From positions 1 to 64,000 of the forward strand of contig CAWFJP010000023.1 in the NCBI GenBank assembly GCA_963816145.1: a stretch of 64,000 nucleotides of DNA, written 5' to 3'. This DNA comes from an uncultured delta proteobacterium (GTDB taxonomy: Bacteria > Desulfobacterota > Binatia > UBA9968). A model generated the notes under the pieces. It did not search any database and was not told the DNA's origin. It saw only the letters and a program-made list of their open reading frames with translations. Shown piece after piece: positions 3,192-49,529 of this stretch. A program made the translations under genes and the position numbers. How positions within the stretch are numbered: position 1 is the first letter of the stretch; each line of letters begins with the position of its first letter.

Positions 3192-3765
3192 TCAGACGCT
3201 TTCTACATCGTCGGCCAGCAGCATCTGCGGCACGACCACGAAACGGTACTTCGGTTCGGCGCCAGGCTGACGCACCAGCACCCAGATCAGATCGAATCGC
3301 TCATCCGGCCAATGCTTGGGAACGTCGTCGATGTTAACGATCGGAAAGTGGCCCACGAGTTTCGCCATGGTGCCATGATGCCAGACGATCAACGCTGGTT
3401 CCGGCCGGGCTGAGCACTTCCTTGACCAGGTCTTCTTCATTGCCGTGGGTGTGCGAGTCGACGATGTCAAGCTTCAGGCGCTTGGCGGTCGCCTCCGCGG
3501 TGTGCATCTCCCGCTTGCTCTTCGCTTCGTGGGTCGGCCGGGTGGCGAATATGCGACCCGGGGGCACGATATGGGGATGCGACTTGGAGGGAGCATGGGC
3601 GAACAGACCGGCGAGGGCGCCGGCGCGGGTCCAGCCCTTCACTGAAAGCGAGTGCTCATCGATCTCGCCGTGATGATTGACGCCGTGTGGTTTCGTGCCT
3701 TCCCCAGGCTTCTCGCCATGGCGCACGAACATGATAACTTCAGGAGCTGCGTTATGATTTGCCAC
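3192..3765 (-). CDS. Histidine phosphatase (phosphoglycerate mutase-like) family protein, +1 frameshift near 3412
   Basis: IMFVRHGEKP (RHG motif) in ORF 3334..3777 continues as LIVWHHG...WPDERFDLIWV in ORF 3192..3470. Confidence 0.75.
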
Positions 3766-4082
3766 GTCACACCTCAATCTTTCATCGCCGGCCGGACGTT
3801 GCCGCCGCCGAATTCATGTCGGTAGGAATGATTAGCACGCTTGGTACTCTTGTTGGGCGAATTACTCCCAACCTCGGGCACGGATCGCGCTGCCGGACCA
3901 ACGACCTCGACGGGCCACTTCGACAAATCGCCATCTGTTGCGCCGGGGCGGCGCTCACCCTGGCAATGGCCTTGAGTGGCTGAGACTTCCGATTCATCTC
4001 CGACTCATCGCTTTCGCTCTTCATTGAGTACGCCGTCTTGCCGCGGCAATCAACTGATCGCTGATTACCGCTCACTTTCTCC

Positions 4083-4847
4083 TCAAGACTGATCACTAAC
4101 GACTGATGACTGATCACTTTTTACTGGCCCTTTTCGGGAGCGCAACAAGTACAGCACCAGGGCAATCAATACGAATAGGCCAAGCACATAGAGCCACTGG
4201 GCGTGCCGATGAAAGAAGGCCGCGATGAAATGGATATCACGACCGAGAAAATAAGTTCCGAGCCCCCAGGCGCAAGTCCAGAGCATGGCGCCGGCGACAT
4301 TGTACGCCGTGAACGTCCACCAGGGCATTTGCAAAACACCAGCGACGATCCCATTCAACTGTCTCAGTCCGTCAAGAAATCGCGCTAACAAAACCACCAG
4401 GCCGCCGCGCTGTTGGAAAATATCATCGAGGTGCTGCTGGCGCTGCGGGTTGACCTTGAGCTTGTTCAGCGCCGCCCGACCGCCCCACCGGCCAAGCGCG
4501 TAACCGGCGCTGTTGCCGAGAGTGGCCGCCGCAGTGACTATAAAAAGCAGCAAGGTGATGTTCATCCGTCCTTCAGCCGCCTCCAGCGCTCCCGCCATGA
4601 GCAACGTCTGCCCCGGCGTCGGGACGCCCATGCCTTCCACCATCACAGCCGCAAATGCTGCGCCGTAACCGTAGCGTTGCAACAGCGGCTGTACTTTTGC
4701 CAGTGAGTTTTCGAACCGCCGTGTCATCGCGCTTGGCTGGGGCTCCGCCCCTGCCGCAAAAGATTCCACAGGAGCTAACAAAGTAATCAGAGCAATTCTC
4801 GAAACCGCGCCGGCTGACAGCGTCAAGAAGCATAGCAGGACAGCCAT
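4083..4847 (-). CDS. DedA family membrane protein
   Basis: EGMGVPTPGQTLL, LGNSAGYALGRWGG, LLARFLDGLRQLNGIVAG, FTAYNVAGAMLW; the upstream ORF extension translates repeat DNA. Confidence 0.88.
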   Translation of the reverse strand: MAVLLCFLTLSAGAVSRIALITLLAPVESFAAGAEPQPSAMTRRFENSLAKVQPLLQRYGYGAAFAAVMVEGMGVPTPGQTLLMAGALEAAEGRMNITLLLFIVTAAATLGNSAGYALGRWGGRAALNKLKVNPQRQQHLDDIFQQRGGLVVLLARFLDGLRQLNGIVAGVLQMPWWTFTAYNVAGAMLWTCAWGLGTYFLGRDIHFIAAFFHRHAQWLYVLGLFVLIALVLYLLRSRKGPVKSDQSSVVSDQS

Positions 4848-5028
4848 GCGTCCGACGAGAAGGGATTTGAACAGGAGGTAACGGAGATAACAGAGAATAT
4901 TTGGGGAGGGAACTTTGTTTCCTCTGTTTACTCCTGTGAGAAAATGCCGAGGAAATTTCCCCTCGACACCCGACACCCGACCCTCGCTCATTTCGGACTT
5001 TCTTTCGCTGGCGGCGAATCGGCCGAGG

Positions 5029-7236
5029 TTACTTCGGCGCCAACACCTTGGGAAGAAGAAAAGATACCTGCTTATACACAGATTCGTCGATGACGTTGAG
5101 ACGCGATTCGGACTCGTCGATCGTACTCACGCCCAGCGTCTGGTCGGACATAGTAAACAACGCCGCCATCTTAAGATCACGACGATTTTGGGCAAACTTT
5201 GCCAAATACCACCCTTCCACATCCAATGCCGCGATGGATTTTAACTTCCAGTCCTCCAACAAGGCGAGCGTTTCATGATAGATCGTCGGCACCCGGCCGT
5301 GCTTGGTCTGGGCGTGGACAGTAACCACACTTGACAGTTCTTTGTGATAGGCGTGAGCCAGATTTTGTTGAAACGGCACCGCGACACCGAGGTTATCGAT
5401 AAATTCATTGGGTATCACCACGGCGCCGACTTTATAACTCGCTATGGCCCCTGCGGTGCCCAAATAAACCACCTGACGCGCGCCCTTGTTATAGAAAGTA
5501 TCCATAATGATATTGGCATCGTCGCCATAGACATTGCGCGCAATCACCAGCCGTTGCTTAAATGTCGGGTGGGTAAAGAGATCAATATCCAATCCGGTTT
5601 TGACCAGCGGCTGGCGCCGCCAATTTTGCTCCAGCAAGATTTTTTCCCATTTTCCTTTAAAACCGAACAGCAGCCAATCCTGATCGCTGAGTTTCAAAGA
5701 GTTCCCGGCTGGATTGAAGACAAACAAAGGCAGCTCGGCCTTAGCATGCACCGAATGCATACTTGTAAAGGTATCCGACCGGGAAATTTGACAATAAACA
5801 TCGGCTTCCTGGTCAAGCCCTCGAAGATTGGTGAAAACTATCCGATAGGCGTGCGGTTTTGCTTTTACCGCAATATAAATGTTGCGATGAAGTTGGCCGC
5901 GCCGGGTCTGGAGGAAATAAAAAGTGTCAAATCCGTCGCGCCGATGAAACGCATAGGCGTCTTCAACCGTCTGGTTGTGGGTATAAAGGTCGGTGGACGA
6001 GATCGAGCGGGTCGGAAACTGGTCTCGCAAAAAGCCGGCAAAAGCCTTGGGAAAGCGATCGGAGGTATAGTCCGCGATGTTCATATTATATTTGCCGGTA
6101 GGCGCCGAACAGGCCACGGGCTTTACGCTGACTTTTAGGGATTCCTTCGCTACGCCTTGCTTCTGAACGAAAACCTTTCTCATATTAAAAAGCTTCGCAT
6201 CAGGGTAACCTTCGTAGATACTGGAGATCATATCTTCCGCAACCGGTTTGAATTTGGCGTAGCCCGCGGATCCTTGCAAAGGTTTTAGCGCGGCGTTGGT
6301 AAATTTCTCCGCCCAACGGTCCGCCGATTGACCTCGCTTATAAACCAGAACATTGGCTGAAGAATCCTTGCGATCGCTGCTGCTTGGTCCGCCGTCGGTC
6401 ACGAGAGATACAGCATTCCAACGCGATGTCAGTGCCGCGCACTCCTTGTCCTGCAAAAGATTGGGACAGACTAACTTGAGATCCTGCAAAAACCCTTTCC
6501 AACTTTCATCGAACAAGGCCCCTTGCAACTTTGCCAGGTCCTCGCTGACATCCTGGTACAGGCCAAGTCTCTCAATCACTATTTTCACGGCAGGATCGAT
6601 GAGACCCGCCGTTGCCCCGCCGGATTGAATAACCTTTCGCACCGCGCTCGCCGAGCTGCCCGGTGGTTCTTCGATCTCGACCAACAGTTTCGCATTCGCA
6701 GGCAACGTCTTAGGGTCAAGCGCCGGAGTTGGGGTGTCCGCTTGCTTCAGAGAAAATATCATCCATTGCAGCTTTTGATCGTGCGCCCCTGGCGAAGATT
6801 TCACCGCCTTATAAGCAGCGCTGTCGATGAACTGGATCAGCCGTTCAATGTTTTTATTCTCAAGAAGGGCACGGACTTTATCCTCCCTACTTCCTGGCGC
6901 GGTTACCACCTCAACCCGATCACCGTATTTGCGCAGCGCCTGCCGGACCATCAGTCCACGTTCCGTTGCGGAAGCCAGCGTATCCCCATCGCTGCTTTGG
7001 TCTACCGAGACCACTAGACGCTCGATAGTTTTGCCGATCCCCGCGCATTCTTTCCGAACGCTGGCGTCTCCCAGCGCGCAGCGCATCATGGCGATCTCTG
7101 CCTGAGTCGGCGGATCAAAGGTGCCGGCATACAAACCCACGCTGGCGGCCCTGGCCCCGGGTGCAAACAAAAGCACCAGACTCGCAATAGCAAAGATTAA
7201 AATCGTAAAACGGCCGAAACCCTGTGAACGCGTCAT
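5029..7236 (-). CDS. Exported fusion protein: degenerate NadD/CoaD-type nucleotidyltransferase domain, unknown middle region, C-terminal purine/uridine nucleoside phosphorylase-like domain
   Basis: Signal peptide ending ARA-A. GLYAGTFDPPTQAE (HxGH position degenerate), ASATERGLMV and SSASAVRKVIQSG..GLIDPAVKIVIERLGLY resemble NadD. VVYLGTAGAI..VGAVVIP..ALDVEG..LFTMSD resembles the PNP/UDP fold. Confidence 0.65.
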   Translation of the reverse strand: MTRSQGFGRFTILIFAIASLVLLFAPGARAASVGLYAGTFDPPTQAEIAMMRCALGDASVRKECAGIGKTIERLVVSVDQSSDGDTLASATERGLMVRQALRKYGDRVEVVTAPGSREDKVRALLENKNIERLIQFIDSAAYKAVKSSPGAHDQKLQWMIFSLKQADTPTPALDPKTLPANAKLLVEIEEPPGSSASAVRKVIQSGGATAGLIDPAVKIVIERLGLYQDVSEDLAKLQGALFDESWKGFLQDLKLVCPNLLQDKECAALTSRWNAVSLVTDGGPSSSDRKDSSANVLVYKRGQSADRWAEKFTNAALKPLQGSAGYAKFKPVAEDMISSIYEGYPDAKLFNMRKVFVQKQGVAKESLKVSVKPVACSAPTGKYNMNIADYTSDRFPKAFAGFLRDQFPTRSISSTDLYTHNQTVEDAYAFHRRDGFDTFYFLQTRRGQLHRNIYIAVKAKPHAYRIVFTNLRGLDQEADVYCQISRSDTFTSMHSVHAKAELPLFVFNPAGNSLKLSDQDWLLFGFKGKWEKILLEQNWRRQPLVKTGLDIDLFTHPTFKQRLVIARNVYGDDANIIMDTFYNKGARQVVYLGTAGAIASYKVGAVVIPNEFIDNLGVAVPFQQNLAHAYHKELSSVVTVHAQTKHGRVPTIYHETLALLEDWKLKSIAALDVEGWYLAKFAQNRRDLKMAALFTMSDQTLGVSTIDESESRLNVIDESVYKQVSFLLPKVLAPK

Positions 7237-7594
7237 CGCTTCGCCCTCACTTCGCCGCAGTTCCCGAGGCCCATTTAGTATCATTACAGCGCTCCGTCAC
7301 AGGCGAAATCGCATGCAAATTCCCAAAGACAAATTACCCAACCAATGGTTTTGAATAGGCAACCGCGCTATCTGTAGCCGCCGTGCGGGATTTCAATTCA
7401 CCCATTTCGCCGCGCTGCTGATCGATCATTCTAGCGTCTCACCCTGTTTGATTCTTAACATCAAAATGTTGAACAGGACAACGGCAAGAAAATCCATCGT
7501 GCCAGCACCTCTGCGAGTCAAATCCGAAAGCCGAATTTCTCAAGAGATCCCGCGGACCGAAATAAACGCTGAAACAATCGATGCAGGCGTATAA

Positions 7595-7623
7595 ATGACC
7601 ACGCGCCGATTCGACAATATCGC
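7595..7623 (+). promoter_or_regulatory. Putative sigma70-like promoter of NADAR copy 1 (ATGACC-N17-TATCGC)
   Basis: Aligns with the better-matching copy upstream of the second NADAR gene. Confidence 0.3.
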
Positions 7624-7670
7624 TCCGGTCAGGTAAAAGCTTGGACAAGCATTCTATTCGGTCTTTTATC

Positions 7671-8285
7671 ATGAAACATTTCCGCTCCCCGCTGCTTTGG
7701 CTGCTGCTCCTCCTCGGTACGACCGCAGCGATGATCGTAGCTCAGGCGCCGGCCGCGTTGGCAGCGTCGACGAGCGCCGCGCCGGCGAATAAGCTCAAGT
7801 GGGACGAAAAATTCGCTGGTGTCGTCCACGACGCCAAGAACATTCGTGGCTTCGTCGACGAGTATCGCTGGCTGAGTAATTTCTTCCTCAACCGCGTCGA
7901 GTGGGAGGGCCGCGTTTACAGCTCGGCGGAGGCGGCCTACCAATCGGGCAAATATCCTCCGGCGGAGCGCGATGTGTTCACGACGCTCGACCCCGGCCCG
8001 TCGAAAAAACTTGCAGACATCAACCCCTATGACAAGGCCGTTTGGGCGGCGCGCAAGGAGCGGACCATGCGCGAGGTCGTATGGGCGAAATTTTCGCAGA
8101 ACCCCGAGCTTGGCAAAAAACTCCTGGCAACGGGCGACCGCTACCTCGAAGAGACCAATTGGTGGGGCGATAGACTTTGGGGCGTTTACCAAGGCGAGGG
8201 AGAGAATCTCCTCGGCAAAATCTTGATGGAAACCCGTGCGCGGCTGGCAAAAGAGAGCGCCACGGCATCAGGCAAAACAAAATGA
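7671..8285 (+). CDS. NADAR (YbiA-like) family protein with N-terminal signal peptide, copy 1
   Basis: WLSNF, SAEAAYQSGK, MREVVWAKFSQNPEL, LLATGDRYLEETNWWGDRLWG, GENLLGKILMETR; leader MKHFRSPLLWLLLLLG..ALAA. Confidence 0.9.
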   Translation: MKHFRSPLLWLLLLLGTTAAMIVAQAPAALAASTSAAPANKLKWDEKFAGVVHDAKNIRGFVDEYRWLSNFFLNRVEWEGRVYSSAEAAYQSGKYPPAERDVFTTLDPGPSKKLADINPYDKAVWAARKERTMREVVWAKFSQNPELGKKLLATGDRYLEETNWWGDRLWGVYQGEGENLLGKILMETRARLAKESATASGKTK

Positions 8286-8352
8286 TCCGCCAATTCAGTC
8301 GGAGTTTATGACAAGGGATAGCAAATTGCTCCAGGACGATGCCGGGTTGTGA

Positions 8353-8381
8353 TTGACTACGCGCCGGTTCGATCATATAGC
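8353..8381 (+). promoter_or_regulatory. Putative sigma70-like promoter of NADAR copy 2 (TTGACT-N17-TATAGC)
   Basis: -35/-10 match with 17-bp spacer, conserved between both NADAR upstream regions. Confidence 0.4.
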
Positions 8382-8426
8382 TCCCGTCAAGTCGAAAGGA
8401 CGGGCAAACTTTTTCGCCCCTTTACC

Positions 8427-9020
8427 ATGAAACACTTCATCTCGCCGCTGGTACGGCTGTTGTTCTTACTCGGTGCGACCGCGGCGATCTTGGCGCCGAC
8501 GCCGCCTTCACTGGCGGCGGCCAAGAAGCTCAACTGGTACGACAGTTTCGACGGCGTCGTCCACGACGCCAAGAACATTAAGGGTTTCGTCGGCGAGGAT
8601 CGCTGGCTGAGTAATTTCTTCCCCTGTCGCGTCGAGTGGGATGGCCGCGTTTACGGCTCGGCGGAGGTGGCCTTCCACTCGGCCAAGTATCCTGCAGCGG
8701 AGCGCGACGCGTTCACCAAGCTCGACGCCGAACAGGCGCGGAAGCTTTCGCGCACCAAGCCCTACGACAAGGCCGCTTGGGAGACGCGCAAGCTGCGAGT
8801 GATGCACGAGATTGTTTGGGCAAAATTTTCGCAGAACCCCGAGCTTGGGAAAAAGCTCCTGGCGACCGGAGACCGTTACCTCGAGGAGACCAACTGGTGG
8901 GGCGATAAAGTTTGGGGCGTTTACAAAGGCGAGGGGGAGAATCTGACGGGAAAAGTTTTAATGGATACCCGCGCACGTCTCGCCAAAGAGCGCGCCGCTG
9001 AATCGGCGAAAGCGAAATAA
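8427..9020 (+). CDS. NADAR (YbiA-like) family protein with N-terminal signal peptide, copy 2
   Basis: Tandem paralog with the same motifs (SAEVAFHSAK, LEETNWWGDKVWG, GENLTGKVLM); leader MKHFISPLVRLLFLLG..SLAA. Confidence 0.9.
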   Translation: MKHFISPLVRLLFLLGATAAILAPTPPSLAAAKKLNWYDSFDGVVHDAKNIKGFVGEDRWLSNFFPCRVEWDGRVYGSAEVAFHSAKYPAAERDAFTKLDAEQARKLSRTKPYDKAAWETRKLRVMHEIVWAKFSQNPELGKKLLATGDRYLEETNWWGDKVWGVYKGEGENLTGKVLMDTRARLAKERAAESAKAK

Positions 9021-9259
9021 TCCGCCACGTCGGTGGGCTTTTGTGACCAGCGGTAAAGTGGGCCTTTCCCCGCCGCTCAATTCTACTTTGCAACTGAACG
9101 TTGAACACCATAACGAAAAAATCCATCAGGCCAATAGGCGAGCTCGATAAAGCGGGTTCATAAAGGGGCAAGAAAAACCCGCTCCGCTAGTTCGGAAATT
9201 TTCCGCCGCATCGCGGTTAGCAAGGAGGCCGTCGACGCAAGATCGATCACAAATCCCGC

Positions 9260-9335
9260 CACTCGACCCTCGACACTTTTTTCTCCACCCTCGACCCTCG
9301 ACACCCTTCCCTCGGCTCTCGACACTCGCCCCTTC
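9260..9335. repeat. Heptamer array (CACTCGA/CCCTCGA/CACTCGT type); further arrays near 4960, 11300, 15200, 31210-31290, 45885-45965, 46060, 47335, 50280, 52350, 52920-53000, 54685-54780
   Basis: Visible tandem actcgac/cctcgac/cacttt units. Confidence 0.8.
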
Positions 9336-9336
9336 C

Positions 9337-11085
9337 TCACCCCGTCTGCGGCGCAGCCGACCAACTCAATGCCATTTTTCCGGCCCCATCGGGTTTGAGT
9401 TCCATCATTTTATTGTGGAAGTCGGCGAGCGCGGCATGGTGCGCGATGCTGATGATCGTCGCGCCCGGCAACCGTTCGGTCAGCAACTGGTAAACGCGCG
9501 CCTGGCTCGGTTCGTCCAGCGCCGAAGTTGCCTCGTCGAGAAACAGCCACGCGGGTTTTTGCAGCAGCGCCCGGGCGATGGCGATCCGTTGCTGCTCGCC
9601 ACCGGAAAGCTGCTGCGCCCAATTCTGTTGCTCATCAAGCCGATCGGCTAGGTGAGCGAGCCCGGTCAACGCAAGCACATCGCGCACCTCTGAGTCGGCA
9701 AAGGCTTCAACGGGCGCCGGATAGCTCACCACCTGTCGGAGCGTGCCGAGAGGGAAGTAGGGACGCTGGGGCAAAAAGAGCGCGCGAAACTCGCGCGGTA
9801 TTCCGACTATTCCCTTGCCGAACGGCCAGATGCCTGCGATGGCGCGAAATAAAGTGCTCTTGCCCGAACCGGATGGACCCTTGATCAGCAAGCGCTCGCC
9901 GCGCTCGATGCGGGCGTCGATCCCGGACAACAACACGCGACCGGTTGGCAGGCCAAGCTCGAGGTCACGTAGCTGCACGTCGTCAGTCGTCGCGTCTGCA
10001 ACCACCGCTGGGCCGAGGCCGGCGCGGCCCTCCTGCTGGGTTTCCAATATGGCGTTGCGGAATCCGCTTAAACGATCGACCGTAGCCTTCCAAGAAGCGA
10101 AAGTCGTGTAGGCTTCGATGAACCATGAAAGCGCTCCCTGCACTTGACCGAAGGCATTGGAGATCTGGACCAAACCGCCAAGTTGAATCGCGCCGGAGAA
10201 ATAGCGCGGCGCGCCAACTACGAATGGAAATACCACAGCCGCCTGGCTGTAGCCGACCGTGAAAAAGCTCAAGAGCTTTTGCCGTTTCATGATCGCCCAC
10301 CAATTCTCCATTACCGCAGCGAAGCGGGAACGAAAACCGCGCAGCTCGTCCGCTTCGCCGCGATAGAGCGCGACGCCTTCGCTGTTTTCGCGAAAGCGTA
10401 CCAGATTGAAACGAAAGTCCGCCTCGTATTTCTGCTGGTTGAAGTTGAGCGCTACCAGCGGCTTGCCAATCTTGTGCGTTAGCCAGGTGCCGACGATGGC
10501 GTAAACCACGGCGACCCAAACCATGTAACCGTAGACGACGTAGGTCGTACCTGCGAACGAGAAATCGAGGGGACCGGACAGCGCCCAGAGAATCCCGACA
10601 AATGAGCCCAGGGTGACAGCAGCGTTGAGAAAACCCAGTCCAAGGGAGAGACTCTCGTCGACGAACAAACGAAAATCCTCGGCGATGCGTTGATCGGGGT
10701 TGTCAGTGCCGTCGCCCTTGAGCTGCATACGGTAGTAATTGCGCTCGGCAAGCCAGTCGTTGAGATAATTGTCCGTCAGCCACCGCCGCCAGCGAATCTG
10801 CAGCATCTGGTTCAAATAAATCCGATACACCGCGATCACGATGTAGATGGTCGCGAGCACGCAAAAGCGGCCAATCTGATGGAAGAACTCAGCCTTAGCC
10901 TTGTCCTGGAGCGTATTGTAAAAAAGGTTGTACCACTGGTTGAACAGGACGGTCATATAGACCAAGGCAAGCGTGAGCGCGATGTTGGCGATCAGCAGCA
11001 GCCATGCGCTACGCCGTTCCTCAGACACCCAGAATGGACGAAGCAGCGACCACAAATCGCGGCTAAAGTTTTTTAACTTGAACAT
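9337..11085 (-). CDS. ABC transporter, fused permease/ATPase (YddA/BacA/ABCD-like)
   Basis: DNPDQRIAED, EADFRFNLVR, Walker A GPSGSGKS, LSGGEQQR, LDEATSALD. Confidence 0.92.
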   Translation of the reverse strand: MFKLKNFSRDLWSLLRPFWVSEERRSAWLLLIANIALTLALVYMTVLFNQWYNLFYNTLQDKAKAEFFHQIGRFCVLATIYIVIAVYRIYLNQMLQIRWRRWLTDNYLNDWLAERNYYRMQLKGDGTDNPDQRIAEDFRLFVDESLSLGLGFLNAAVTLGSFVGILWALSGPLDFSFAGTTYVVYGYMVWVAVVYAIVGTWLTHKIGKPLVALNFNQQKYEADFRFNLVRFRENSEGVALYRGEADELRGFRSRFAAVMENWWAIMKRQKLLSFFTVGYSQAAVVFPFVVGAPRYFSGAIQLGGLVQISNAFGQVQGALSWFIEAYTTFASWKATVDRLSGFRNAILETQQEGRAGLGPAVVADATTDDVQLRDLELGLPTGRVLLSGIDARIERGERLLIKGPSGSGKSTLFRAIAGIWPFGKGIVGIPREFRALFLPQRPYFPLGTLRQVVSYPAPVEAFADSEVRDVLALTGLAHLADRLDEQQNWAQQLSGGEQQRIAIARALLQKPAWLFLDEATSALDEPSQARVYQLLTERLPGATIISIAHHAALADFHNKMMELKPDGAGKMALSWSAAPQTG

Positions 11086-11213
11086 GCGGTTACTCCGAAA
11101 TGAAAATGGGGCGAGCTAAGGTTGTTTACTGCGTGGCGTCCTCCGAGAGGTAACTAACAATGCGCCGGGGTCGAGGGTCGGGTGCCGCGGGGAATATCAC
11201 TCGTCACTTTATC

Positions 11214-11281
11214 ACAGGAGCTAACGGAGGAAACGGAGTTTTTCCATAAAACTCCTCTCCGTTATCTCCGTTACCTCCTGT
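11214..11281. repeat. REP-like hairpin with 9-bp periodicity (ACAGGAGnTAACGGAGnAAACAGAG...CTCTGTTnnCTCCGTTnCCTCCTGT); other copies about 4871-4937, 15114-15180, 30352-30417, 31310-31376, 34275-34341, 35481-35562, 45972-46039, 47143-47206, 47251-47315, 52278-52343, 53642-53695
   Basis: Inverted arms seen directly at about 12 intergenic sites, plus half-copies at about 30292, 41933 and 47084. Confidence 0.85.
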
Positions 11282-11391
11282 TAGTTTTCCCGCCCTTCGT
11301 CACTCGACCCTCGACACTTCCCGCTTACTAGCTGTTGCCGCGAAATTTGAAAATGCACGAGGAAACTCGATTTCGATTACTCTGACTGTCC

Positions 11392-15018: not shown

Positions 15019-15245
15019 TGGATTTTTACCTTTCAAATGTTCAACAGAACGACTTCAACGAGACAAGAATCAAGGGTCGGAGTGTCGAGGGGAAGATCAC
15101 TCGTCCCTTTTTCACAGGAGTTAACGGAGACAACGAGAGTTTCTGATGAAATTTTCTCTGTTACCTCCGTTGCCTCCTGTTAGTTTCCCCGCTCTTCATC
15201 CCTCGACCCTCGACCCTCGACACTCGTCACTCTTACCTTTTTAGC

Positions 15246-47368: not shown

Positions 47369-48748
47369 TTAGAACACCATCTGCATGCGCAGACCGAGGA
47401 TCGTTGCCGTGCCGATGCTTTTCCGGCTCGATATAAAGGGGATTCCGATGGGGCCGGGAGCGGTGCCGATGGTGATTTTCTCTTTCTGTGCCCCTCGGAC
47501 AACTTGGATGTCCGGTGTCAATTGTAGCCACGGCGTTATTGCGAAATTGTAAAATGCCTCAAATCCGTACTCATCACGCAACAATTTAGTGTTCTGAAAC
47601 GGACGGCGGAGGTCAGGATTGTTGACATCCATGTAATAGAAACCGAAGCCGTAGCGATCGTCTGCGCGAGTAGGAATAACACCTTTACCACCGATCCCCA
47701 GGCTGTAGAAAAAGTGCATGAAGTTAGGATTGCCATCCGACGCGCCGAAGCGACCGAAGACACCGATTCCTTCACCGGAGCCTTTTTTCGGCTCATAAAA
47801 ATACTGGTCGAAGTTGTAATGGATGTTCCAAGAACCTTTCTTCCCCTCGAAGGCTCCGTTCTCGAACATGAAGCGCGCGTTCTGATCGATCGAAGTGAAT
47901 GTCCGGTTGGAAAAAAGCGCCCCGAAAAGCTGGTGCCCGGTAAGCCCAAAAAAATCGGTCCTCAAACGCCCCTCGCCGATAAACGTCAAGTTGTTGCCGT
48001 CAAGATCTTCGAAGCCGCTGGTGCTGGCTTTTCCGGTGGCTGAAAGAACCATAAAACTCACGATCGCTTGAGTTGGATCTTTCGTTGGCAACGCGATGAA
48101 TCCGGTGCCCAACGTCGAATAGGGCACCGTCGTCAGCAACACCGGATTGATATTAAACGCGAGGTTCATGAATTGGGTATCGCCCTTGCCGTGGGCAAAC
48201 TCATTCATGTCGCCGCTATTGCTCGTGATCGTAGCGTACTTGCCGATCGTCAAGCCGAAATAAGGGGAAAGAAATTGGCTGAAGTTTAACGCCGGCAGGT
48301 TAAAGTTGTCACCGGCGGGGGTGGGATAAAACTGGCTGCTGTTGACCGGCATGAGCGCGCCGGACCTGCCGTTGATCGATTTGAGCAAACTATCGGCCGG
48401 TATGAAATTGCCCTCGGCTTCGACGGTGAGAAATCCGCCGGGCCACAAGCCAAGTTTTCCGGTGTCGAGCAGGAGATTGATGTCACCGCGCCCGCCGCCG
48501 TACTGCCAGCCGGTGTCCTTGCCGCCATGGACGATGCCTTGGGCGGCCTGGGTCAGGCTCATATCGAGGGTCACGCCCTTGGCGGCCAACTCGTTGCGCA
48601 GGCCGAACCAGTCGCCGCTGAGCGTCGAGCGCGACCAGATATCCCCTGAGTACGGGGTTGGTTCCGGCGCCTCGCCAGCGTGAAGTTGCGCGCCCAGCAC
48701 AAAACTTAGCGCCAAGGCAAAGGCTACGACTATTCTCGCTAAAATCAT
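47369..48748 (-). CDS. Carbohydrate-selective porin (OprB family)
   Basis: LSGDWFGLRNELAAKG, EAFYNFAITPWLQLTPDIQ, terminal Phe. Confidence 0.88.
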   Translation of the reverse strand: MILARIVVAFALALSFVLGAQLHAGEAPEPTPYSGDIWSRSTLSGDWFGLRNELAAKGVTLDMSLTQAAQGIVHGGKDTGWQYGGGRGDINLLLDTGKLGLWPGGFLTVEAEGNFIPADSLLKSINGRSGALMPVNSSQFYPTPAGDNFNLPALNFSQFLSPYFGLTIGKYATITSNSGDMNEFAHGKGDTQFMNLAFNINPVLLTTVPYSTLGTGFIALPTKDPTQAIVSFMVLSATGKASTSGFEDLDGNNLTFIGEGRLRTDFFGLTGHQLFGALFSNRTFTSIDQNARFMFENGAFEGKKGSWNIHYNFDQYFYEPKKGSGEGIGVFGRFGASDGNPNFMHFFYSLGIGGKGVIPTRADDRYGFGFYYMDVNNPDLRRPFQNTKLLRDEYGFEAFYNFAITPWLQLTPDIQVVRGAQKEKITIGTAPGPIGIPFISSRKSIGTATILGLRMQMVF

Positions 48749-48893: not shown

Positions 48894-49529
48894 TCACGGC
48901 CGATTCATCTCCTGGAACTGGCGCTGGTTTTGCGTCGCGATATCCTCAAGTTGTTCATAATTGAGCGCCAGCGTTTCGCAGTTCGAGATCAGCGTCGGCC
49001 AATCAACGTTGGCGCTCGCAACCAGCGCCAGATTAGTCGCCAGCGACTTTCGCACACTGCCGTCCTGATCCCAAAACGAGCCGAACGAGTTCGAGAAAGT
49101 ATTGATGATATAATTGACGAATGACTGCATGCCTTTGAGCCCGCTTTCGATATTTACCTGGCCCGCTTTCCGGTCGCCTTGCTTTGCCTGGGTAAGTCCG
49201 AGGTATAAGCGCGCGAGATTATCCCCTTTATGCTGCGCCAGGGCTTGCTGCAGCGTCGCCTGGGCTGCGGGAAGCTGGCCGGTAAGGTATTGAGCTCTGC
49301 CGAGATAACTCAAAACCCCTTCGCGGAGCTCAGTGCCATAGATATAGTTCGGGCTGATTTGCGCAGCGCTCTCAAAGTCGCCCAACGCGGCTTGAGTATT
49401 ACCCATAAACAGCGCTTGCCTGCCGCGGGTGATATCGCTGCCACCTTGAAAACTCGCACCGCAACCCGACAGTAGGGCAACCAATAAGACTATCGACAGA
49501 TGACCCAGAACACTCATTGTTCGCTTCAT
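48894..49529 (-). CDS. TPR lipoprotein
   Basis: Lipobox LSGC; YLGRAQY, ARLYLGL. Confidence 0.8.
   Translation of the reverse strand: MKRTMSVLGHLSIVLLVALLSGCGASFQGGSDITRGRQALFMGNTQAALGDFESAAQISPNYIYGTELREGVLSYLGRAQYLTGQLPAAQATLQQALAQHKGDNLARLYLGLTQAKQGDRKAGQVNIESGLKGMQSFVNYIINTFSNSFGSFWDQDGSVRKSLATNLALVASANVDWPTLISNCETLALNYEQLEDIATQNQRQFQEMNRP

Follow-up and report, generated by a model that had tools for sequence, protein, structure and literature searches.

Three adjacent genes of an uncultured delta proteobacterium (Desulfobacterota; Binatia; genome of 7.8 Mb in 31 contigs) encode products that all look exported to the periplasm by a Sec-type route. They lie in positions 1 to 64,000 of contig CAWFJP010000023.1 (the window), and code for a 735-amino-acid protein in which a NadD-like, a middle and an NP-I domain are joined (the fusion) and for two tandem NADAR proteins divergent from it. 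Taken together, sequences and structure models give good support for N-ribosyl chemistry that would take place outside the cytoplasm. The fusion would represent an undescribed family of periplasmic enzymes exported by the Sec route, in which a NadD-fold domain without the residues for ATP use would serve as the binding module for a mono- or dinucleotide, a basic middle domain would hold the phosphates, and the NP-I domain would cleave an N-glycosidic bond, most likely to a purine base and by hydrolysis rather than phosphorolysis. With two exported YbiA-type NADAR N-glycosidases of a large soil clade, predicted to be intact, it would dismantle nucleotide-like compounds that reach the periplasm (NAD, ADP-ribose derivatives or other nucleotides), and nearby transporters would take up the cleavage products; the NADAR pair would be an optional add-on to a core of the fusion and a DedA protein. 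We give an even chance to this reading, in which the exported fusion and NADARs, the latter optional, take apart nucleotide-like compounds in the periplasm. The analysis shows the export signals, the folds, the conserved residues and the neighborhood counts; the substrate, the choice of hydrolysis over phosphorolysis, the link to the transporters and any cooperation of the NADARs with the fusion are what we infer.

The longest open reading frames (ORFs) in the window are 5029..7284 (-), 7641..8285 (+) and 8349..9020 (+); the N termini of homologues place the likely true starts at ATG 7236, ATG 7671 and ATG 8427, and a GAGG resembling a Shine-Dalgarno sequence lies 8-9 nt 5' of the fusion ATG. 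Residues of the fusion are numbered on a 736-residue query (window:5029-7239, minus strand) that starts one codon early, at an Ala, so that the Met is residue 2. In each of the three leaders, Lys or Arg in the n-region is followed by a hydrophobic core (15-17 residues) and then by a cleavage site of the A-x-A type, predicted between ARA and AS in the fusion, ALA and AS in NADAR-1, and SLA and A in NADAR-2. The initial annotation had described three adjacent, divergent genes with signal-peptide-like leaders, which both the ORFs and the conserved leaders of homologues bore out; as to its proviso that the true starts might lie downstream, no start codon was found between the leader and the conserved mature N terminus of either NADAR. 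By our own heuristic, leaders were called in 97 of 120 listed NADAR homologues and in 80 of 103 fusion homologues of at least 700 amino acids, most misses having no Lys or Arg in the scored segment or a shifted start. A hydrophobic leader was present in every full-length member of the alignment of close homologues (alignment A1), and distant relatives of the fusion (20-31% identity), forms without the N-domain included, had signal-peptide or lipoprotein-like leaders. In the model, the leader of the fusion is a helix apart from the rest, of low confidence (pLDDT 49-73). Six Cys residues were invariant in 16 close fusion homologues (C54/C65, C258/C267, C377 and C483), the members of the two pairs lying near one another in sequence, and would fit disulfides of an exported protein. 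Since the genome encodes Omp85/BamA-type proteins, a periplasm is present; together with the conserved leaders and the cysteines of the close clade, this agrees with the extracytoplasmic location that had been proposed.

The fusion was modelled with AlphaFold2 from an alignment of 58 sequences (pLDDT 92.6, pTM 0.90), and its domains were compared by VIA-align with 48,161 PDB representatives. The best folds for the N-domain (residues 31-230) were NadD 1yul and 1k4k (Z 18.3, root mean square deviation [rmsd] 2.6-2.7, 180-181 residues aligned), with 5llt at Z 18.2 and PPAT lower, at Z 15.4. The family profile matched Bacillus subtilis NadD (1kam) at an E value of 7.3e-14. Pfam gave no NadD-like match on the N-domain of the window fusion itself, and PF01467 (CTP_transf_like) was matched by 31 of 58 family members on their own. 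In the NadD superfamily, the HxGH and SxxxxR residues handle the phosphates of ATP. The (H/T)xGH catalytic-His signature of NadD/NMNAT is absent in the window fusion, where FDPPTQAE aligned to FDPPHNGH of 1kam. In alignment A1, the first His of the motif was replaced by Thr in 15 of 15 sequences covering the site and the second by Glu in 14 and Gln in 1 of these 15. The Arg of SxxxxR was replaced by Gln in 14 of 16 close homologues; the window itself reads SSASAVR, aligned to VSSTMIR of 1kam. Many distant members of the family retain the second His (PPTxAH). Because the catalytic His is lost, the N-domain is unlikely to be an adenylyltransferase; it is probably a degenerate, non-catalytic, nucleotide-binding module, and a domain that does not use ATP would make sense where ATP is absent. 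Some distant relatives of the fusion (P0161/P0378, 3195 amino acids; P0189, 1132 amino acids; P0238, 548 amino acids, among the distant relatives seen) differ in architecture: in some the NadD-like/NP-I module is part of a far larger exported protein, and in others the NadD-like domain is joined to a transglutaminase-like domain.

The C-domain aligned best with an MTAN (6aym; Z 21.3, rmsd 2.6, 204 residues aligned), then with a PNP (1odi; Z 20.7), a uridine phosphorylase (4lnh; Z 20.2), a solved periplasmic MTAN (5b7g; Z 19.6) and an AMP nucleosidase (7uwq; Z 18.2), and Foldseek returned 1je1 (E 9.8e-13). PNP_UDP_1 (PF01048) matched the C terminus of the fusion marginally (27.9 bits; cut-off, 25.1) and matched 48 of the 58 family members. 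A profile of 22 sequences was aligned residue by residue to a Bacillus cereus PNP (2ac7) and an MTAN (4kn5), which placed D673-V-E675 on E-M-E and S698-D699 on S-D of both. The ribose-binding Glu and the general-acid Asp are E181 and D204 in PNP and E174 and D197 in MTAN. The aligned Glu and Asp positions were invariant in the alignment of this domain (A4), and E656, D673, E675 and D699 were at least 90% conserved even across the wide fusion family. An invariant Tyr (vvYlGtaGa) stands at the position of the Arg in the IRVGTCGA strand of PNP (2ac7), where MTAN has Asn; in PNP and uridine phosphorylase, the Arg of the IRVG(S/T)CG strand binds phosphate. From these residues the NP-I domain is probably active; we would expect it to cut an N-glycosidic bond and release a purine-type group, and lean to hydrolysis over phosphorolysis. 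The middle domain (~230 residues), modelled alone as residues 270-505 (pLDDT 83.2), had no clear fold relative, with a best VIA-align Z of 5.0 and nothing in Foldseek at an E value of ≤0.001. Its invariant Arg and His residues (HRR 432-434 and TRRGQLHR 445-452) suggest that it may bind phosphates. Its identification with the N-terminal domain of AMP nucleosidase (AMNp_N) found no backing: a language-model feature score of 0.78 was a lead only, the VIA-align match to 7uwq (Z 5.0) fell on the catalytic part of that enzyme, and PF10423 (AMNp_N) had no match genome-wide at an E value of ≤0.001.

Both NADARs matched PF08719 (83.6 bits for NADAR-1 and 77.3 bits for NADAR-2), were 68% identical to each other and share a direct repeat (D1; 7779-8078 and 8514-8813, 79% identical). 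NADAR-1 matched Escherichia coli YbiA (2b3w; E 6.7e-11) and a Phytophthora NADAR (8bau; E 5.1e-10), with SAE aligned to TSE/SSE and LEE(T) to LVE of YbiA and LYE of 8bau; the Glu of each falls on one of the two glutamates that contact the ribose. According to the accessible parts of PMC11125620 and PMC11543638, the residue in the last strand sets the NADAR type (Glu in YbiA, Asp in BC4488 and His in phage) and the second Glu contacts the ribose. By this criterion both proteins are predicted to be intact and YbiA-type, both catalytic Glu residues being kept. In the same parts of these two papers the roles given to NADARs are cytoplasmic only and the string "secret" concerns toxins, and the terms "signal peptide" and "periplasm" are absent from the accessible text of PMC11543638; phage NADAR genes adjoin the NAD-salvage genes NadM/NadV in the part of PMC9503650 that is accessible. 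A third NADAR gene of the window genome (G000; contig C11:212169-212519; L003 1360-2022, minus strand) is leaderless and lies in an unrelated context, so that exported and cytoplasmic NADARs coexist in the genome.

Among 30 longer relatives of NADAR-1 surveyed for domain fusions, NADAR was joined to a phytase-like domain (PF13449) in 17, to a LOG nucleotide nucleosidase (PF03641/PF18306) in 3 and to the NadD-like PF01467 (motif NPPTLAH) in 2. Signal peptides were present on the three phytase-like or LOG fusions inspected (P0380, P0387 and P0392), and the two PF01467 fusions inspected had none. A comparison by hhalign with one NadD-like/NADAR fusion (P0403) showed no special kinship to the window family, a 25-residue motif region alone being aligned (probability 5%). 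These architectures would place the exported NADAR clade among extracytoplasmic enzymes that cleave phosphoesters and N-glycosides, and scavenging would be the best-fitting purpose. Several proposals of the initial annotation can be judged here. Its domain calls (NadD-like/phosphorylase and NADAR) were right as to folds and domains, save that the NadD-like part has lost its catalytic histidines. That all three proteins belong to NAD/ribosyl-N chemistry agrees with their N-ribosyl-cleaving or nucleotide-binding folds. Of the purposes it offered, scavenging or sensing on the one hand and defense against toxins on the other, scavenging fits the fusions of NADAR to phytase-like and LOG domains as well as a His_Phos_1 phosphatase found beside distant fusion homologues (below), and the counter-toxin role found no support.

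Gene neighborhoods were compared in 69 related loci (68 metagenomic and one from a metagenome-assembled genome). The upstream flank reached 1 kb or more in 30 of them and the downstream flank in 33. A close clade comprised the 40 loci at ≥60% identity, and a far clade the 29 at <60%, mostly ~50%. A NADAR gene lay near the fusion in 2 of the 69 other loci, many of which have short flanks. In one locus (L027) a single NADAR gene precedes the fusion by ~430 nt in the same orientation; in the other (L014) NADAR lies downstream, again in the same orientation, as one intact and a second, apparently frameshifted copy. With the divergent order in the window this makes three arrangements, in fusions 64-69% identical to that of the window. 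The most constant neighbor was DedA, which follows the fusion in the same orientation in 18 of the 69 loci; of 20 close-clade loci with a downstream flank of 900 nt or more, 14 have it. An OprB porin followed DedA or the fusion within ~2 kb in 14 of 69. Seven of the 69 loci had an ABC transporter gene (56-83% identity to that of the window) ahead of the fusion in the same orientation, with 73-1917 nt between the two. Where a close-clade locus had an upstream flank of 900 nt or more (20 loci), an ABC gene was present in 6, a symporter/binding-protein fusion in 7 and a TPR lipoprotein in 7. The divergent locus L074 has the order ABC, TPR, fusion, DedA, OprB. The window itself reads ABC, then both NADARs on the opposite strand, then fusion and DedA. 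The TPR lipoprotein and the only OprB of the window genome stand side by side, 40 kb from the fusion; because TPR and OprB flank fusion-DedA elsewhere, the fusion-DedA pair resembles a mobile unit of two genes, or else was moved to its present site. In the window this TPR lipoprotein gene (48894-49529, minus strand) is directly upstream of the gene for the OprB-family porin (47369-48748, minus strand). The three genes are thus a loose recurrent association and not the conserved module that had been claimed for them, the recurrent partners of the fusion being DedA, OprB, ABC and the TPR lipoprotein.

The far clade differed in its neighbors. An overlapping 205-amino-acid gene of no family stood beside the fusion in 10, and an exported His_Phos_1 phosphatase in 7, of the 17 far-clade loci with flank. 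The partner gene (~193-205 amino acids; L045, L046, L050, L052-L054, L056, L058, L064, L068, L071 and L073) lies -12 to +32 nt from the fusion end (e.g., L050:5129-5707) and had no match in Pfam, NCBIfam or the protein atlas; the His_Phos_1 gene is ~650-700 nt beyond it on the other strand.

The strongest alternative is a chance adjacency: the fusion, along with DedA, and the NADARs would be separate extracytoplasmic enzymes with unrelated substrates, and the NADARs would merely have landed between ABC and fusion; we consider this a real possibility, somewhat short of even. It is favored by the rarity of NADAR neighbors, by a genome (G401) that has the fusion and gave no NADAR match, and by the loci in which ABC and fusion follow each other at the distances given above on one strand with no NADAR between them. 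The NADAR clade is also far larger than the fusion family (781 against 243 relatives), and REP-like repeats (4854-4985 and 9255-9334) flank the block. In a maximum-likelihood tree built quickly from 44 fusion sequences, where rows with short flanks cannot show a NADAR, the three NADAR-adjacent loci were scattered and not clustered (three changes; 500 of 500 shuffles as low). Three juxtapositions in diverged lineages nevertheless exceed what we would expect by chance, a rough judgement made with no statistic; fusion and NADARs are both leader-bearing, predicted N-ribosyl-cleaving enzymes, and NADAR is elsewhere fused to LOG nucleosidase and NadD-like domains.

Several points weigh against joint periplasmic breakdown of nucleotides by fusion and NADARs. 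No pointer to a ligand came from RNA elements: an Rfam scan of 4500-9600 at an E value of ≤1 gave no match, and 23 aligned upstream regions of the fusion had no conserved element and offered no riboswitch clue. The middle domain, a third of the protein, matches no known fold. Leaders were called with a crude script of our own (hydrophobic window, charge and AXA-like site) and not with SignalP. The far-clade partner gene has no obvious leader. Besides the few NADAR neighbors among the 69 loci, genome G401, of unstated completeness, has the fusion and gave no match to the NADAR query, and the scattered labels on the tree fit repeated gain or, equally, chance. Also on this side, the RNA evidence (below) is a weak sign of transcription, since RNA libraries can carry DNA and the contigs are short.

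A further-reaching version of joint periplasmic breakdown, an unrecognized extracytoplasmic pathway of soil diderms for NAD/ADP-ribose-type compounds, is in our view rather doubtful. NADARs and fusion would act on the same extracellular N-ribosyl compounds, with the dead NMNAT fold recognizing dinucleotides and the middle domain as a phosphate clamp; if true, the pathway would perhaps, besides serving nutrition, destroy NAD-derived signals or ADP-ribosylated compounds of competitors or lysed cells.

It is unlikely that fusion and DedA act instead on a membrane-bound substrate, such as a nucleoside- or nucleotide-linked lipid of the outer leaflet (adenosylhopane-like or polyprenyl-phosphate-linked). 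The constancy of DedA as a neighbor (present in L074 and L075 as well as in 14 of the 20 close-clade loci with sufficient flank) points this way, as do the undecaprenyl-phosphate transporters among DedA relatives (NCBIfam UptA, 45 bits, far below its cut-off) and a weak match to the hopanoid-associated phosphorylase HpnG (E 0.0099). However, the HpnG and UptA scores are both far under their cut-offs, a repeat element separates fusion and DedA in the window, DedA is lacking in 15 of 17 far-clade loci with flank, and no lipid-binding feature was seen. Equally improbable are leaders that are not cleaved, either as N-terminal anchors in the inner membrane or as Tat substrates: some fusion homologues begin with a loosely Tat-like MRRFELF and the leader call rests on a heuristic, but the leaders in the window have no twin arginine and an A-x-A site follows each hydrophobic core, and the catalytic domains would face the periplasm in either case.

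Least probable of all is a counter-toxin or immunity function, in which exported NADARs would strip competitors' ADP-ribose from envelope or extracellular targets or would destroy NAD-derived signals. Characterized NADARs are antitoxins that reverse guanine ADP-ribosylation, in the accessible parts of PMC11543638 and PMC11125620. The window NADARs also matched an anti-phage NADAR model weakly (37.7 bits; cut-off, 240) and had a weak PADLOC match, to a generic NADAR candidate model only. No ADP-ribosyltransferase was found among the neighboring ORFs scanned and DarT (PF14487) had no match genome-wide, a weak negative, as control genomes gave none either; with the Glu-type and not Asp-type (BC4488) NADARs, the lack of an ADP-ribosyltransferase among these neighbors upholds the statement of the initial annotation that this is not the known DarT-NADAR toxin-antitoxin arrangement. 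The partners to which the clade is fused (phosphoesterase-like and LOG) are catabolic in kind, and the known NADAR targets and NAD are cytoplasmic.

The fusion had 243 relatives among 5.8 billion protein clusters and 137 representatives among 1.84 billion, with automatic labels where they were named at all, and the exported NADAR clade had 781 relatives of 112-357 amino acids. Both families came almost only from metagenome records, with one metagenome-assembled genome and unnamed environmental NCBI records; the fusion family was mostly from soil and wetland metagenomes. Among 401 same-phylum genomes the fusion was found only in G000, two further rows being weak partial matches at 26-27% identity, and the exported NADAR likewise only in G000, three others being core-only matches at 34-37% identity. 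A second phylum-wide set (301 genomes, probably overlapping the first) had the fusion only in G401. A scan of the genome contigs with the single fusion protein gave L004 as the sole locus. In a plasmid collection the fusion had no match and NADAR matches were core-only and <60% identical. No account of exported NADARs or of a NadD-like/NP-I fusion was found in the literature, supplements lying outside the search. The window stretch recurred near-identically in 14 wetland and soil DNA runs (0.74-0.85 of sampled words), and short contigs from four metatranscriptome libraries matched genes of the locus, several with 0-2 differences, covering parts of the fusion and of both NADARs (Table 1) as well as parts of the DedA and ABC genes. 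The GC content of the fusion gene was 0.523, against a window mean of 0.570, and that of the NADARs matched the host composition. Recent transfer as the cause was rejected: a deficit of 3-8 points in the fusion relative to the flanking DNA recurred in each of the 8 other loci compared (L008, L011, L014, L016, L027, L031, L052 and L068), so that low GC is a property of the fusion gene and not of the window locus.

The ABC transporter gene in the window (Pfam PF06472, 204 bits; PF05992, 136.6 bits; and PF00005) and the DedA gene are listed with the other features in Table 1. A family of REP-like repeats (CTCGACCCTCGACAC... joined to TCTCCGTTACCTCCTGTT...) sits in several intergenic gaps. Two copies bracket the fusion/NADAR block, one of them between fusion and DedA. 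The long DedA ORF (to 4991) opens with ~48 codons that translate the copy between fusion and DedA, and tblastn of the N terminus of that ORF matched 11160-11240 and 15054-15218; the start of the ORF where it overlaps the repeat is probably non-coding. RNA-library contigs of other organisms end around 4858-4898. At 3192-3777 (minus strand), two overlapping ORFs in different frames (FVRHGEK... then ...LIVWHHG), neither with a Pfam match, resemble halves of a leaderless histidine-phosphatase-type protein, which could reflect a frameshift, a pseudogene or an assembly error.

Table 1. Features of the fusion/NADAR locus, in window positions; functions and domain assignments are predicted
Feature	Position	Strand	Remarks
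Exported three-domain fusion gene (putative)	5029-7236	-	735 aa from ATG 7236
Fusion signal peptide (predicted)	7147-7236	-	Residues 2-31, MTRSQGFGRFTILIFAIASLVLLFAPGARA, predicted cut between ARA and AS
NadD/NMNAT-fold domain	6544-7146	-	Residues 32-232, motif GTFDPPTQAE replacing GxFxPxHxGH
Helical hairpin (233-275) and middle domain (276-503)	5731-6543	-	
NP-I fold domain (MTAN / PNP / uridine phosphorylase-like)	5032-5730	-	Residues 504-736
NADAR-1	7671-8285	+	204 aa, leader residues 1-31, cut between ALA and AS
NADAR-2	8427-9020	+	197 aa, tandem paralogue, leader cut between SLA and A
DedA/VTT-family membrane protein	4083-4847	-	PF09335, 64.1 bits; NCBIfam DedA/UptA matches below cut-off
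ABC transporter, fused permease-ATPase	9337-11085	-	ABC_membrane_2 / SbmA-BacA type
REP-like repeat copies	4854-4985, 9255-9334, 11256-11326, 15082-15232		Repeat families D2, D3, I1
Fusion stretches covered by RNA-library contigs	5048-5484, 6355-6557		
NADAR-1 stretch covered by RNA-library contigs	7580-7979		
NADAR-2 stretches covered by RNA-library contigs	8426-8696, 8856-9037		

NADAR, NadD and NP-I enzymes are treated as cytoplasmic. Here, two sizeable families of such supposedly cytoplasmic enzymes (243 fusion and 781 NADAR relatives) would be exported. If they are active outside the cytoplasm, soil bacteria would split the N-glycosidic bond of nucleotides or NAD-type compounds ahead of import, which would bear on the scavenging of phosphorus, nitrogen and ribose from extracellular nucleotides and would add to the known roles of NADARs, those of antitoxins and of riboflavin damage control. 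The fusion would also show how an NMNAT fold can in nature become what is likely a binding module, next to a conserved 230-residue domain without a solved relative.

The N-domain has in common with NadD/NMNAT the fold over ~180 residues and the G-x-F-D-P-P loop; in contrast to these enzymes, the fusion is apparently exported, has the H-x-G-H histidines replaced (T...E) and is joined to two further domains. With NP-I enzymes the C-domain shares the fold (Z 18-21 over 204-225 residues), the ribose-binding Glu and the catalytic Asp, but it is barely above the Pfam cut-off, has Tyr for the Arg of PNP and, unlike PNP or MTAN, has an invariant FGFKGKW loop. AMP nucleosidase, like the fusion, has an extra domain N-terminal of NP-I, whereas PF10423 is without a match in the fusion. 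The catalytic glutamates and the SNF and WG motifs of YbiA-subfamily NADARs are found in both window NADARs, which differ from YbiA in the predicted Sec leader, ~25 extra residues at the mature N terminus (KLKWDEKFxGVVHDAKNI) and the lack of a toxin partner. In the DarT1-NADAR system, DarT is adjacent and NADAR is of the Asp type (BC4488), whereas in the window the NADARs are of the Glu type and the scanned neighbors include no ADP-ribosyltransferase. The periplasmic utilization of NAD by Haemophilus influenzae, which depends on the nucleotidase NadN, the phosphatase e(P4) and PnuC, embodies the same idea as that proposed here, in that the cell breaks down NAD-type compounds in its periplasm and only then imports them; the families are unrelated, however, and cleavage there is of pyrophosphate and phosphoester bonds, whereas the folds found here are those of enzymes that cleave N-glycosidic bonds.

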